59,416 nucleotides of DNA from a virus (Duplodnaviria > Caudoviricetes): the IMG/VR virus record IMGVR_UViG_3300025402_000010, positions 1-59,416 of that record; one strand, 5' to 3'. This document shows positions 16,064 through 43,053 of this stretch, piece by piece. Within the stretch, counting starts at the first letter, position 1, and each line of letters begins with the position of its first letter. The notes beneath the pieces are model-generated. The model did not search any database, was not told where the DNA came from, and saw nothing but the letters and a program-made list of their open reading frames with translations. The position numbers and the translations under genes are program-made.

Positions 16064-18178
16064 CTATTCACCTTCTCTGCACTTATATTGTTCAAGAAGG
16101 AATTTATTCAAAGCATCTGCATGCTCATCAGGATCTTTTATCTGATTAATTTTTTTTGTTCCTTCTTTAAATTCTTTACTATCATTGATAGCTGCAATTT
16201 TTTCTGGATATTCATCTTTATCAATGAGACCAGTCCCCTTGCAGATTGAACACCATTTACCGTGCCCCTGTACCGTATAGGTTGGAGTCTGATCTTTATA
16301 ATCATGGTCCGGCATAGGAGATTTTTCTTTTTCCTCATAGTCTGTATCTGGTTCTTCAGTGTCAACTAGCTCAGGGACATTACTCTCTGGTGTATATGTG
16401 TCAAATTCATCTGGGTTAGGTTCTCTTGCTGTAACAGTTGGTTTTGATCCACCATTAATATCACTAAAATCTTCATCATCATCTTCAACGTTTCTGTTTG
16501 CTTCATCTGGATCAACTTTAACTTTTTTAGCAAAACCTGAGAAATTTGTTTCTGATGCTTTGTGATACCAAGCATTTTCTGCGCCCGACGTTCCACAAAT
16601 TTTACAAGCTTCAGAACCTTCTTGTGGAACGTAAGCATGCGCTTTGTGATAATTAGCGTTGCCATTGCTAGGAACTTCACAGCCTCTGCAGTGCCCTGGG
16701 TGACCTTTGAGCTCAAGCTTTGCGCCAGATTCGTCGTATGGTTCACACTCATGTTCTTTAGTTTCACCATTATTGTATGTAGTCTTGTAAATACCTTTAC
16801 AAGTTACACAGTGATCAGGTCTGTCTTCAATTTCTCCAAAATTTTTGCAAAGATTGCAAACAGTGTCAGGACTACCCCAATAACCACGAAGTTTACCTTC
16901 GCAATTTTGATTTCTTGGATCGTGTCCAAAACAATGTTGGTCTTTATCATATTTGTCACTGCCACAATTGCCATTTTTTTCTTTCATGCAATTTTTGCAA
17001 TGTGGTTCAACCCAATAAGGGTTATCAGGGCGATTATATTGTGATTTGCCTTCACATTCTGGGCATATTCTGTAGTCAGCATCACTTTTTTTAGAATAAT
17101 CTTCAACAGTACCTTGTGTGTCTGCAGTGGAAGATTCACCACCCTGTTCAAGCAAAAAGTGAGCCTCAGGCATCTCTAATTCATCAAGGTGTCTAAAGTT
17201 ATCGTCAGAATCGTAGTCATCCGATGCTGGAGTTTCTACCAATCTGCCTTCATTAAAATAACCGGGGATAATAGAATCAGCAGTTCTTCTAAAACTAGCT
17301 GTTTTACCTGGTTCTTCAACACTGACAGGGTATAACTTTTTATTACTCTTCCAATTGTCAAGAATGTTACGGAAGTGATCGTGAAAAGACAGGCCTTCAT
17401 TAGTATTAGACAATGCTGTATACATGTCTTCTCTAAGCTGAGGGTCAGAAACGTTTTCATTAATCATTGATTGAAGTTTTTGACTAGGCAATGGAAGTTC
17501 TCTTGGGTTAGAACTTATAAGAGCGTTGGGATCACTAACATCAATTTTTTCAGGGTCTTTAATTAAGTGAATACCAAAACCTATATTGTTATCACCTTTA
17601 CAATCTATTTTTTTGCAATATCTACATGCGCCACCGTGATTACCAAAACCACGAAGACCACCAACACATGTTTCCATTGCTCTATTGATTCTAGGGCTAT
17701 CAATATTTTTGGGGTTTGCTAGAACATTTTCATCGTAATTACGGCACTCTGAATCATCAGGGCAACGTGCGTGATCAAATTTACCTTGGCAGTACATGTG
17801 ACCAGGATATGCATTGCCTTCTGGATCTCTTCTACCATTAGTGAGTCTATTGTCTGGAATATACTTATCGCATTTTGAACAGACCCAACCTTTTTCTTGA
17901 TTAAAATAGGCTGGTGAACGGTCATCTACACCATTAAACTTATGATAGGTATACCCTGGGGTGGGGCTCCTATAAGTTTTATGAGCGTCATCCATCTTGG
18001 GCATAGACCCTTTTTCGTAGCTCATGTACCAAAAAGGATTGTCATCTGTAGTTTCGGGACCATCACCATGCTCTTGCATAAATTTTGCAAGTTCTTCAGG
18101 CGATAATTTTGGGTAATTAGGACCAAATAATGGTGCAGCCGATTGCTTGTTAAATGATGAATTAAATGTTTTAGACAT
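16064..18178 (-). CDS. Large multi-zinc-finger acidic protein
   Basis: 704 aa; many CxxC (CSKC, CRYC, CPECEG, CKNC, CNLC, CVTCKG, CRGC, CKICG, CSICKGTG); internal KTASFRRTAD. Confidence 0.65.
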   Translation of the reverse strand: MSKTFNSSFNKQSAAPLFGPNYPKLSPEELAKFMQEHGDGPETTDDNPFWYMSYEKGSMPKMDDAHKTYRSPTPGYTYHKFNGVDDRSPAYFNQEKGWVCSKCDKYIPDNRLTNGRRDPEGNAYPGHMYCQGKFDHARCPDDSECRNYDENVLANPKNIDSPRINRAMETCVGGLRGFGNHGGACRYCKKIDCKGDNNIGFGIHLIKDPEKIDVSDPNALISSNPRELPLPSQKLQSMINENVSDPQLREDMYTALSNTNEGLSFHDHFRNILDNWKSNKKLYPVSVEEPGKTASFRRTADSIIPGYFNEGRLVETPASDDYDSDDNFRHLDELEMPEAHFLLEQGGESSTADTQGTVEDYSKKSDADYRICPECEGKSQYNRPDNPYWVEPHCKNCMKEKNGNCGSDKYDKDQHCFGHDPRNQNCEGKLRGYWGSPDTVCNLCKNFGEIEDRPDHCVTCKGIYKTTYNNGETKEHECEPYDESGAKLELKGHPGHCRGCEVPSNGNANYHKAHAYVPQEGSEACKICGTSGAENAWYHKASETNFSGFAKKVKVDPDEANRNVEDDDEDFSDINGGSKPTVTAREPNPDEFDTYTPESNVPELVDTEEPDTDYEEKEKSPMPDHDYKDQTPTYTVQGHGKWCSICKGTGLIDKDEYPEKIAAINDSKEFKEGTKKINQIKDPDEHADALNKFLLEQYKCREGE

Positions 18179-18210: not shown

Positions 18211-19035
18211 TTATTGTTTACAAGTATTGCAATTAATTTTGTTTGGGTTTGCTTTGCAATTATCGCAAAAAATTTCATGATTATCTGCAGCGTGTTTAGA
18301 ACCAAGAAGAGCAAGGCCAGCAAGGCCAGCTGCACCAGCACCGAGAGCTGAAGCACAACCGTGGCAAAAGCCTCCAATCAAATTACCAGGAAGGTCGGTG
18401 CCCGCAGGTGCACCAATAACTCTACGTGAAGCATGAACCGTTTCAGGGTGATCTGGGTGGTGCTCTGCGTCTGTGTGCTGGTCTGAGTTATAATCTCTAC
18501 TTTGTGCATCAAGGTCTTTGTGAAGCTGATCATCTTTTTTAATGTAGTGGCTCTTGTTAAGAGCTTCACCAATATAACCACCGACAGCAGCACCACCGGC
18601 AAAACCAGCTGCGCTACCAGCACCAGGTGCAATTAGAGTACCAAGACCCGCACCCATCAAACCGCCTGCAAGTTCACCAGCGCCAATTGCTGCGTGATCT
18701 TTAAGCATTGCTTTACCCGTACCAGGAGCAAGACCAAAAGCAGCTACTTTACACATTTCGCAAGAAGCGTGGCGCAACTGCCACTCATCATAGATAGCGC
18801 GAACCAACTTAGCCTTAGAGTCACTAACGTTAGCAAGCTTGTGGTAAGCAACCTTCTCGATGTCTTCTTCAACCATGCGCATGCGTTGTGCAAGCTCACG
18901 GTCACTGTGGGCGAGAAAAAAGAAATCACCGGTTCTAGTAAGCAAATCGTGCTTAGCAGCTACCAGGCTCTTACCAGCAAACTTGGCATCAAATGCCATG
19001 TTTACTGAATCGTCAAAATCGAACATCGAGGTCAT
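18211..19035 (-). CDS. Glycine-zipper-containing protein
   Basis: AAGGAG RBS; GELAGGLMGAGLGTLIAPGAGSAAGFAGGAAVGGYIG; CxxC motifs. Confidence 0.65.
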   Translation of the reverse strand: MTSMFDFDDSVNMAFDAKFAGKSLVAAKHDLLTRTGDFFFLAHSDRELAQRMRMVEEDIEKVAYHKLANVSDSKAKLVRAIYDEWQLRHASCEMCKVAAFGLAPGTGKAMLKDHAAIGAGELAGGLMGAGLGTLIAPGAGSAAGFAGGAAVGGYIGEALNKSHYIKKDDQLHKDLDAQSRDYNSDQHTDAEHHPDHPETVHASRRVIGAPAGTDLPGNLIGGFCHGCASALGAGAAGLAGLALLGSKHAADNHEIFCDNCKANPNKINCNTCKQ

Positions 19036-19124
19036 CGTGTTACTCCTTGGCTATGCCCTTAAAGGGCGCTGGACAATAGGCAATATATACCTAATACCTG
19101 TTATAAGATAGAGCTTGTTTTAAA

Positions 19125-19213: not shown

Positions 19214-19246
19214 CTGAGGGAGAAGGACTCGAACCTTCAACAAAGG
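19214..19246 (-). pseudogene. 3' half of a disrupted tRNA (T arm and acceptor 3' strand)
   Basis: CCTTTGTT-GAAGG-TTCGAGT-CCTTC-TCCCTCA-G; the acceptor strand is complementary to the 5' half at 20047-20071. Confidence 0.8.
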
Positions 19247-19317
19247 CTCTGGGGCCTCGGGTCGAACGAGGGCTAGAAGTTCCAAAGACTCCGGTGCTAC
19301 CTTTACACTACCCCAGA
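19247..19317 (-). tRNA. tRNA-Gln(TTG)
   Basis: TCTGGGG/CCCCAGA acceptor, GGAGT-CTTTGGA-ACTTC anticodon arm, CCTCG-TTCGACC-CGAGG T arm, G73; overlaps the last codons of the HNH ORF. Confidence 0.88.
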
Positions 19318-19980
19318 ATGTTTTAAGCGTTTACGCACAGCATTATCTGAAACGCCTAATTTTAATCCAACTTGAGTATAGCTGCTTTCTTCAACCATAG
19401 CAAGCAATGTATAATTATCTGGCCAATTAATTTTATTTTTACGAGGATAGCAGCTTCTACAAGTACCTGTTTTGCTGTTTTGCTGTATGTAATTTTTACA
19501 TTTTTCACATTGGCGTCTTGGTTTTTTGGTGCCATAAGTTTCTGTTTGTGAATGACAATTAGGGCAAAGAAAACGAAGGTTTTTTAAACTATTATCAATA
19601 CGATCACCATTGATGTGATCGATTTGGAGTGTTAATTCTTTCTCATTCCAATTGTTATTGATTCCACAAATTGCGCATTTATATTCGATGCCCATCTCTA
19701 GAAGAGCTCTAAGAAGATGAACACGTTGTGTACGCGATGACCCATAGGGTTTTTTTACTAATATTTCTTCTGGTTTTAATTTATCACGATGAATACCATA
19801 AATATTATTATTAGGCAAAAAATGCTTAGTTGATATACCAGCATCTTTAATCCGCTTTGAGTAGTGCCCATGGGTACCACCATTTGGTGATAACCCTAAA
19901 GACCTTAACGCATGCGATATTGATGGAGAATTAGTTACTGCTTCTCTAAGCTGTTCATCTGTTATTTTTTTTCTGCTCAT
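19303..19980 (-). CDS. HNH homing endonuclease
   Basis: CAICG...LQIDHINGDRIDNSLKNLRFLCPNCHSQT; N- and C-terminal HTH-like segments; AT-richer than neighbours. Confidence 0.9.
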   Translation of the reverse strand: MSRKKITDEQLREAVTNSPSISHALRSLGLSPNGGTHGHYSKRIKDAGISTKHFLPNNNIYGIHRDKLKPEEILVKKPYGSSRTQRVHLLRALLEMGIEYKCAICGINNNWNEKELTLQIDHINGDRIDNSLKNLRFLCPNCHSQTETYGTKKPRRQCEKCKNYIQQNSKTGTCRSCYPRKNKINWPDNYTLLAMVEESSYTQVGLKLGVSDNAVRKRLKHSGVV

Positions 19981-20046
19981 ATTTACTTCTATACTCTAAC
20001 GGCAATATTAAATCATTAATTTATATTTACGTTCGAGTCAGTGAGA

Positions 20047-20071
20047 CGTGTTGCCTTTACACCATCCCTCA
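20047..20071 (-). pseudogene. 5' half of a disrupted tRNA (acceptor 5' strand and D arm)
   Basis: TGAGGGA-TG-GTGT-AAAGGCA-ACAC; pairs with TCCCTCA at 19215-19221. Confidence 0.8.
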
Positions 20072-20726: not shown

Positions 20727-21275
20727 TCAAGTATTTGGCAATTCTGTTAAAATATTAAAAGCTGCAGCCAAATCAGCTGGCATCATTTGATATGGGTTGC
20801 GGTCAAAAACAATACCACCAGCCCATAGGGATTGAGCTACTACAGCACTACAAATCATAGTGTTGCTATTGGTAAACTGTATTTTAATACCAGTTGCTAA
20901 TTCTAAAGCAATACTCAAGATGGTTAAGAAACCATACTTATCCTTAATAAAACTTTTACAAGCAGCTACCGTTTGATCACGGCTTTGCTTGTTAAGTTTT
21001 GTTGTAACGTAGTAATATTCTACGTTTTTGTACTCACTAATATTGCTAGTAATAACACCACGACCAACAGCCTCAACAATAGTGCCATCCTCGTCAATAA
21101 CCATGGCAGCGTGATTCCAATGAGAATAAGGCTTCATTTTTCCATGATAACGAGTAAATTGACCAAAACGGATAAATTTAGCAAGAATACCATTACTAAA
21201 AACCAATATAAAGTCCCCAGGTACATATTTAATTGGTTCTTTGCCTGCGTCGTATACCTTATATGTTGTAGTCAT
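20727..21275 (-). CDS. Permuted papain-like NlpC/P60 (YiiX/YebB-like) amidase/peptidase
   Basis: PGDFILV, HWNHAAMV (His), MICSAVVA (Cys) in permuted order. Confidence 0.75.
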   Translation of the reverse strand: MTTTYKVYDAGKEPIKYVPGDFILVFSNGILAKFIRFGQFTRYHGKMKPYSHWNHAAMVIDEDGTIVEAVGRGVITSNISEYKNVEYYYVTTKLNKQSRDQTVAACKSFIKDKYGFLTILSIALELATGIKIQFTNSNTMICSAVVAQSLWAGGIVFDRNPYQMMPADLAAAFNILTELPNT

Positions 21276-42982: not shown

Positions 42983-43053
42983 ACTGCAGTAGCTCAATGG
43001 TAGAGCAACCTGGTTAACCAGGTAGGTTGTGGGTTCGATTCCCACCTGCAGTA
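42983..43053 (+). ncRNA. tRNA-like RNA with non-canonical palindromic anticodon arm
   Basis: ACTGCAG/CTGCAGT acceptor, GCTC-AATGGTA-GAGC D arm, GTGGG-TTCGATT-CCCAC T arm; anticodon arm is ACCTGGTTAACCAGGT with no 7-nt loop. Confidence 0.8.

Follow-up and report, generated by a model that had tools for sequence, protein, structure and literature searches.

We describe a putative mobile element in the transfer RNA (tRNA) gene cluster of a phage of the Caudoviricetes, in which a gene for an HNH endonuclease, running at its 3′ end into a complete tRNA-Gln(UUG) gene, lies between the two halves of another tRNA-Gln(UUG) gene. The stretch analysed, hereafter the window, is the whole of the IMG/VR virus record IMGVR_UViG_3300025402_000010 (59,416 bp, with a completeness of 39% according to CheckV), and it encodes a portal protein and a large terminase. 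We interpret the arrangement as an intron-less homing cassette, made up of the HNH gene and its fused tRNA-Gln(UUG), that was inserted into the anticodon arm of the resident tRNA-Gln(UUG) gene, a reading to which we assign a probability of roughly 0.7. The evidence comes from intact forms of the broken gene in relatives, from derivatives of the cassette at several stages of decay, and from a recently exchanged block that contains it.

The broken gene is represented by two segments on the minus strand (Table 1). The 5′ half comprises the 7-nucleotide (nt) acceptor strand, the TG dinucleotide, the 4-bp D stem with its loop, and position 26 of the tRNA, and the 3′ half comprises the 3′ strand of the anticodon stem, the variable loop, a perfect T arm, the complementary acceptor strand and G73. 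A first-pass annotation of the window, made from its letters without database searches, had placed both halves, the HNH gene and the complete tRNA-Gln(TTG) here, and ARAGORN, Rfam, the open reading frame (ORF) and our own reading of the sequence agree with it on all of them. Only the 3′ half needs an adjustment: its end at 19214 and its T arm were correctly given, but its start, put at 19246, is at 19249-19245, slightly further upstream.

Relatives of the locus were reached through homologs of a neighbouring 274-amino-acid (aa) protein, and a search with the 5′-half pattern returned 19 loci, 15 of which have an intact tRNA-Gln; the other four hold the cassette or a derivative of it. On five contigs (L102, L107, L110, L111 and L112) ARAGORN calls an intact 71-nt tRNA-Gln(ttg) followed by a tRNA-Tyr, which equals that of the window across the approximately 70 nt compared, and ten more of the 19 loci hold two other intact tRNA-Gln alleles. 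Because the two halves match the intact tRNA-Gln(ttg) of the relatives at 24 of 25 and 35 of 36 nt, they are not chance resemblances to a tRNA. Judging from these alignments, the disrupted gene is a tRNA-Gln, as had been guessed from the window, with the anticodon UUG, and it was recently broken; the empty sites that the first-pass annotation proposed to look for in related phages do exist, both here and for a second allele described below.

The cassette sits between positions 26 and 37 of the old tRNA, in the anticodon arm, where it had first been placed, although the old tRNA is without only 10 nt (positions 27-36, that is, the loop up to and including the anticodon, together with the 5′ side of the stem) and not the whole arm. 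At the right junction, the 3′ half and the terminus of the new tRNA share a 4-base microhomology, GAGC (19249-19246). One could suppose that such a gene still yields the old tRNA-Gln, through an intron (group I or other) or through joining of the halves in trans, since the nested layout is like that of anticodon-loop group I introns carrying endonuclease ORFs, and since the T arm of the 3′ half in the window has kept its pairing. However, the two halves together do not contain positions 27-36, anticodon included, so that no splice could give a tRNA, and a complete tRNA lies inside the supposed intron. No group I or group II intron model of Rfam matched at an expect value (E) of up to 10, in agreement with the earlier failure to see a group I core. 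Moreover, relatives show the halves in decay: L002, a contig of 122.8 kb with the same arrangement as the window, has a broken T stem in its 3′ half, and the 5′ half is missing in L096 and L009. A functional interrupted tRNA is thus very improbable in our view. Among the contigs of four metagenome runs, none listed rejoins the halves into an intact gene, although contigs cannot prove absence.

The replacement tRNA-Gln is physically continuous with the nuclease gene. The HNH ORF and the new tRNA overlap by exactly 15 nt (19317-19303), which are the last four codons and the stop of the former and, as the first-pass annotation had noticed, the first 15 nt of the latter. The new and the broken tRNA both carry T1:A72 (U1:A72 in the RNA) and G73, also read correctly at first sight, and a repeat search pairs the 5′ half with the beginning of the new tRNA as a 27-nt direct repeat, 78% identical. 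Compared with the presumably sensitive alleles, the new tRNA has three different positions in the D arm, and its acceptor and T stems are entirely different. We found nine copies of it, eight on IMG/VR contigs and one in the window, which vary only at position 26, at loop position 37 and in the anticodon stem, and the anticodon-stem variants are compensatory (GGAGT/ACTTC, GGAGT/ACTCC and CAACT/AGTTG). From this covariation, and from the retention of the new tRNA after loss of the HNH gene, we infer that it is functional, supplies tRNA-Gln(UUG) and has taken over from the broken gene. An exact 24-mer of the new tRNA had no match in 185,579 species genomes.

In all nine contigs with the new tRNA, the 3′ remnant of another tRNA-Gln follows directly after it. 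The full HNH gene is present in only two of them, the window and L002. Four others (L094, L097, L113 and L093) have both halves, with the HNH gene reduced to a 3′ remnant, and the last three (L096, L009 and L010) have the new tRNA and the 3′ half only. In L094, L097 and L113 a clean deletion of 691 nt from the full cassette has joined the initial 5 nt of the leader, which follow the 5′ half, to the final 33 nt of the HNH ORF, and these lead into the new tRNA and then the 3′ half. The joint left by this deletion (19350 to 20042) was also found in the freshwater metagenome run X2, at a depth of 803 versus 977 for the full form. Relatives with the same halves and no HNH gene had been named beforehand as evidence that would speak against an insertion, and these three contigs resemble such relatives, but only superficially: we regard them as secondary deletions and not as the ancestral state, because the scars of 5 nt of leader and 33 nt of ORF are kept. 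The contigs taken together show that the HNH gene was later lost while the new tRNA was kept.

The contig L093 (the same as L207) has the halves of a different tRNA-Gln allele, whose acceptor strands covary. L218 carries the intact form of this allele with the same upstream flank, and 12 of the 13 loci found with an L093-type 5′ half are intact. Here the 5′ half extends up to position 29 and the 3′ half begins at about position 31, two anticodon bases having been lost and three filler bases gained; the HNH remnant encodes a C-terminus that has diverged, yet its point of fusion to the new tRNA is unchanged to the base. L009 and L010 have a junction of a third type, near position 39, and their 3′ remnant resembles the intact tRNA-Gln of L012. 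Three types of junction are thus represented, spread over at least two old alleles (probably three), and every one of them lies within positions 26-40 of tRNA-Gln. Their recurrence with the same HNH-tRNA insert speaks for a site preference of the element and against random scarring. The notion that the HNH gene and the new tRNA make one conserved unit, already advanced in the first-pass annotation, holds across these contigs.

The comparison of the window with L002 points to a recent exchange. Over the block that opens with tRNA-Asp and closes with the new tRNA, the two differ at 12 of 904 nt (98.7% identity), whereas the flanks are about 80-88% identical, with 30-47 of 50 positions, mostly 38-47, matching per 50-nt segment, and the adjacent upstream tRNA-Asn and downstream tRNA (Tyr versus Ile) are different genes in the two genomes. 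Two of the differences fall in tRNA-Asp, where they form a compensatory pair. The right end of the tract is the junction between the cassette and the 3′ half, which is the trace expected of a break in the old tRNA that was repaired with little co-conversion on that side. The HNH ORFs differ at 6 of 678 nt, and since five of these differences are synonymous, with a synonymous-site fraction of 0.21 (binomial estimate for the excess of synonymous changes, P about 0.002), the gene is under purifying selection. The two HNH proteins differ at one residue, the 100% given by tblastn being a rounded value. A second contig, L118, a metagenome contig of 1.6 kb, shows 100% identity with the window between 20155 and about 19115, that is, from tRNA-Asp through tRNA-Tyr; past tRNA-Tyr the identity is approximately 72-80% over the next 300 nt or so of the neighbouring gene and lower farther on. 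These comparisons document a recent lateral spread of the block. The earlier proposal of a unit made of the HNH gene and the new tRNA is correct as to these two components, with the correction that the recently exchanged block also carries tRNA-Asp.

The HNH protein itself is recognised by Pfam as PF01844 (HNH) barely above the cutoff (21.9 bits versus 21.4) and by PHROGs as phrog_10822, annotated 'HNH endonuclease', at an E of 2.3e-55 over residues 2-180. In an alignment with 15 homologs (16 sequences in all), the 17 invariant columns are all present in the window ORF, among them C102, C105, D121, H122, N124, N134, C139, C142 and H143, which include the catalytic His, Asn and His residues and two CxxC pairs of zinc ligands and give the core pattern D-H-x-N...N...C-x-x-C-H. 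An AlphaFold model of the protein (predicted local distance difference test, pLDDT, 88.9) begins with a helical domain, continues with an HNH core (residues ~100-146) and another Cys cluster, and ends in a bundle of three helices at the C-terminus. The modelled core consists of a hairpin (strands 119-122 and 135-138) and a helix at 140-143, with pLDDT above 90. On the model, the HNH core is predicted to be zinc-bound and the C-terminal bundle, which Pfam weakly likens to sigma-70 region 4, to be a helix-turn-helix. A Foldseek search of the whole model against the PDB gave only weak matches to HNH domains (McrA, Cap5; best E 0.099), and a sequence search of the PDB with the protein gave nothing significant (best E 0.041). 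Long homologs continue for 10-15 residues past the point where the window ORF enters the tRNA. The gene is free-standing, with its own ATG and RNA genes on either side, and no intron model matched it.

As tRNA genes are classic integration sites, and integrating elements often restore the gene they enter, we also considered an integrase- or transposase-type island targeting the tRNA gene. The sole ORF of the cassette is, however, the 225-aa HNH protein; besides the homologous 5′ parts of the two tRNAs there are no flanking (att-like) direct repeats, and there are no terminal inverted repeats beyond one 9-nt pair at the cassette ends. That pair was itself rejected as a candidate, being judged a chance occurrence at 11 such pairs per 1 kb. 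The insertion, moreover, is in the anticodon arm with 10 nt lost, not at the 3′ end of the gene, and it replaces a whole tRNA, not merely a 3′ segment. We give the island explanation even less credence than the interrupted tRNA.

Homologs of the HNH protein at 33-48% identity are abundant, and they too keep company with tRNA genes, which were found at 27 of the 29 homolog metagenome loci scanned (the best-scoring of 80 returned, with two duplicates excluded). A mechanical table of their ORFs has 34 rows, some of them near-duplicates; 23 have a same-strand tRNA downstream, and in 15 of the 34 the stop lies inside that tRNA (8 rows) or at most 20 nt before it. The coupling of ORF and tRNA appears to be a trait of this HNH family. 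In cultured phages, homologs lie in the tRNA clusters of Escherichia phage mistaenkt, where the coding sequence ends 1 nt 5′ of tRNA-Leu, of a Pseudomonas Pakpunavirus and of an Enterococcus Schiekvirus. Distant HNH homologs whose ORF ends within the next tRNA are found in L017 (2477-2968) and in L123, L131, L144, L147 and L148, with overlaps of 4-44 nt, often 15. Distant HNH homologs with tRNA-Leu on both sides occur in L133 (1366-2211), where both flanking genes are tRNA-Leu(gag), in L138 (1148-1836) and in L125 (1324-2400); these may represent a non-disruptive version of the same process of allele replacement.

The events leading to the present arrangement might be pictured as follows. In a mixed infection, the HNH enzyme would cut or nick, at or close to the anticodon arm, the intact tRNA-Gln gene carried by a relative without the cassette, and the break would be repaired from the cassette-bearing genome, with the halves and the neighbouring tRNA genes serving as homology arms. 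The HNH gene, its tRNA and a variable length of flank would be copied in by this process, the tract itself being visible in the comparisons above. The target gene would be destroyed by the loss of positions 27-36 with the anticodon, which is what the window displays, and the linked, sequence-divergent tRNA-Gln would assume its function while escaping cutting. The HNH gene would afterwards decay and be deleted, leaving the new tRNA and scar fragments as they are found in relatives. Processing of the polycistronic tRNA precursor by RNase P might strip the last codons and the stop from the HNH message and, by analogy with T4 segB, would probably hold nuclease levels low. A stronger version of this scheme is that the cassette is a natural cleave-and-rescue element, in which the HNH enzyme destroys the tRNA-Gln(UUG) gene of competitors, the fused and recoded tRNA-Gln is a cleavage-immune rescue, the two spread as a unit, and processing of the overlap throttles the nuclease. 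We put this forward tentatively, as a possibility that falls somewhat short of an even chance.

Several observations weigh against a homing cassette. Our placing of the HNH target is deduced solely from the insertion positions, and the junctions vary by lineage, which implies imprecision in the first insertions. In its anticodon arm, the new tRNA of the window departs from the presumably sensitive allele at only 3 of 17 positions, and the basis of any self-immunity may reside in the D arm or elsewhere. The block of high identity exceeds the cassette, including tRNA-Asp in L002 and tRNA-Tyr as well in L118, and general recombination between tRNA clusters could have moved it; L118, being only 1.6 kb long, could also be a chimeric assembly. 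Run X2 may be the source sample of the window, and it was available as contigs only, not as raw reads. Orphan tRNA fragments unrelated to this HNH gene are common in these clusters, examples being a 3′ remnant of a tRNA-Asn in L002, fragments in L012 and orphan T arms in L017, L125, L133 and L146. Finally, a script detected no credible split tRNA at 37 loci of distant homologs, its sole output, in L138, lying inside an ORF and having been rejected as a chance match. With no accepted splits near distant homologs, splitting is not a family trait, and the nested layout is, as far as these loci go, particular to the tRNA-Gln clade.

Some of these points would be accounted for by a plain recombination scar, left by clusters that shuffle between tRNA genes, in which the HNH gene was a resident that neither caused nor directed the split. 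The frequency of tRNA fragments with no HNH gene adjoining, the neighbouring tRNAs within the exchanged block, the heterogeneity of the junctions and the lack of accepted splits around distant homologs are all as such a scar would have them. What it does not lead one to expect is that every one of the nine copies of the new tRNA abuts a tRNA-Gln 3′ remnant, that the junctions, of three types and from at least two (probably three) old alleles, are all confined to positions 26-40, or that the fusion point of the HNH ORF and the new tRNA is conserved across two HNH lineages with diverged remnants. Nor does it fit with a cassette much more similar between genomes than its flanks and an HNH gene under purifying selection. 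We consider the scar unlikely, though clearly less so than the island or the interrupted tRNA, and we retain the homing cassette. The interpretation given in the first-pass annotation is largely supported, with the HNH enzyme presumably cutting the intact gene and the new tRNA presumably resistant. As an observation apart, positions 2859-2897 of L002 hold the T arm and acceptor remnant of a second tRNA-Asn directly after tRNA-Asn, and positions 3106-3180 of L012, between tRNA-Asn and tRNA-Ser, hold a T-arm remnant and a 5′ acceptor/D-arm fragment; from these pieces, the succession of a complete tRNA and the 3′ remnant of an isoacceptor is not limited to tRNA-Gln.

Table 1. Features of the tRNA cluster around the cassette, in the order in which they are read on the minus strand
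Feature	Position	Strand	Basis and remarks
tRNA-Asn(GUU)	20226-20154	minus	ARAGORN; Rfam 59.8 bits; upstream neighbour, outside the near-identical L002 block
tRNA-Asp(GUC)	20149-20073	minus	ARAGORN; Rfam 68.9 bits; left end of the 904-nt block common with L002
5′ half of disrupted tRNA-Gln(UUG)	20071-20047 (25 nt)	minus	Sequence reading; 24/25 nt match to intact L102-type allele
Cassette leader	20046-19981 (66 nt)	minus	AT-rich; weak ribosome-binding site precedes ATG
HNH endonuclease gene (225 aa)	19980-19303	minus	ORF; Pfam HNH; phrog_10822
Complete replacement tRNA-Gln(UUG)	19317-19247	minus	ARAGORN ttg; Rfam 49.9 bits, gathering score 29
3′ half of disrupted tRNA-Gln, positions 37-73	19249-19214	minus	35/36 nt match to intact allele
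tRNA-Tyr(GUA)	19208-19125	minus	ARAGORN and Rfam; downstream neighbour, also 3′ of intact tRNA-Gln in empty-site relatives

The cassette has a guanine plus cytosine fraction of 0.32-0.37, which is below that of the tRNA genes and within the range of nearby phage genes, and which we did not use as evidence. Scans of the locus for promoters and terminators remained at the level of shuffled sequence (6 versus 4.3 expected and 4 versus 2.0 expected, respectively). None of the sequencing runs listed as containing the stretch is an RNA run. A megablast search with 3.1 kb of the locus gave no match among 50,697 phage records, and the matches of a more distant blastn search were confined to generic tRNA genes and a short HNH stretch.

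Other features of the window can be noted. Beside the tRNA cluster on the minus strand are ORFs of 704 aa (16064-18178) and 274 aa (18211-19035), both rich in Cys/His clusters; neither has a PHROG match, and the 274-aa ORF, the only one of the two run against Pfam, has no match there. Among relatives, the 274-aa protein is conserved at its N-terminus and varies strongly over the rest of its length. Upstream of its gene (19036-19110, minus strand), a conserved motif, TTGTCCAGCG, lies between two hairpins and next to a strong ribosome-binding site. It is found at the same place in L002, L003, L008, L009 and L012, the hairpin stems varying in sequence between relatives with their pairing kept, and it looks like a conserved regulatory or processing element that ends the tRNA cluster. 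Another ORF on the minus strand (20727-21275, 182 aa) weakly matches both the permuted papain-like amidase C92 of Pfam (E 2.8e-5, which is below the cutoff) and PHROG 1128. Farther away, at 42983-43053 on the plus strand, Rfam finds a tRNA at 60 bits, to which ARAGORN gives no identity and a two-base anticodon; by our reading its anticodon arm has a perfect 5-bp stem and a 6-nt loop, GTTAAC, which makes the arm palindromic. A pseudo-tRNA is one possibility here, and a suppressor or frameshift tRNA of an unusual kind is another.

Homing endonucleases are known from phage tRNA clusters, the examples being SegB of T4 and F-Tfl of T5. The SegB study describes a GIY-YIG enzyme, encoded in the tRNA cluster, that cuts tRNA genes at a T-loop motif and drives the inheritance of neighbouring tRNA genes, and it proposes that the stop codon of segB is removed during the maturation of tRNA-Arg (PMC2330249). 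According to another paper, SegB can amplify a tRNA-Tyr segment, by which a tRNA-cleaving defence is escaped, and SegB homologs are enriched near tRNAs (PMC13096335). Like SegB, the HNH protein described here is encoded in a phage tRNA cluster, belongs to a nuclease widely associated with tRNAs and has neighbouring tRNA genes carried along with it. The tRNA genes of relatives without the element would likewise be its targets, and its stop codon likewise abuts or overlaps the next tRNA, so that tRNA processing would truncate the message. Unlike SegB, which is a GIY-YIG enzyme, the present protein is of the HNH type, and membership in the SegB family was ruled out, as Pfam and PHROGs return HNH families only. 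Moreover, SegB acts at a T-loop motif at tRNA 3′ ends and is placed between intact tRNA genes, whereas the cassette is placed within a tRNA gene, which it destroys, and supplies an isoacceptor.

HNH enzymes are also encoded in the tRNA region of T5 (cited in PMC2330249). They share with the present protein the character of site-specific HNH-type nuclease ORFs within a phage tRNA cluster, but the latter comes from another HNH family. The genes of the T5 enzymes (F-Tfl) are reportedly intergenic, and the enzymes are said to nick DNA. Group I introns are found in tRNA anticodon loops, and HNH enzymes such as I-HmuI are encoded in introns. The cassette is like the group I introns of tRNAs in its insertion in the anticodon arm, in the endonuclease ORF between gene halves and in its putative spread by homing; unlike them, it has no ribozyme and no splicing, the host gene is inactivated, and neutrality would be obtained by means of a second gene copy. 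A parallel in logic is found in the atp6 gene of Allomyces, where a mobile endonuclease element of fungal mitochondria reportedly brings a replacement gene end, and in synthetic cleave-and-rescue drives, where the nuclease travels with a working but diverged copy of the gene it disrupts or displaces. In both of these, as in the cassette, a nuclease is accompanied by a divergent rescue copy and the old part is left as a remnant. They concern protein-coding genes, with other nucleases and other hosts, and one of them is designed, whereas here the putative rescue copy is a whole tRNA gene in a bacteriophage. Our literature search, which did not reach subscription-only papers, found no split or replacement tRNA reported for the T5 enzymes, and it returned only SegB-type work, with no homing endonuclease that splits a tRNA gene and brings a replacement tRNA. 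The element is best read as the HNH equivalent of T4 SegB, with a layout that is new in being nested and in making up for the damage it does.

To our knowledge, the known harmless routes of mobile elements into genes are self-splicing introns and inteins. A gene that is broken outright and paid for by a linked substitute would be a third route to neutrality, one that follows the logic of cleave-and-rescue. The natural series is nearly complete, from the empty site through the full and the HNH-deleted cassette to the bare replacement tRNA, and makes the cycle of invasion and decay readable. Such a cycle would explain both the litter of tRNA fragments in these clusters and the exchange of tRNA alleles between phages that are approximately 83% identical. 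If the cassette is a cleave-and-rescue drive, and if the phage tRNAs here act against host anticodon nucleases, its spread would also exchange anti-defence alleles among phages. With HNH homologs in cultured Escherichia, Pseudomonas and Enterococcus phages, the idea could be tested at the bench.

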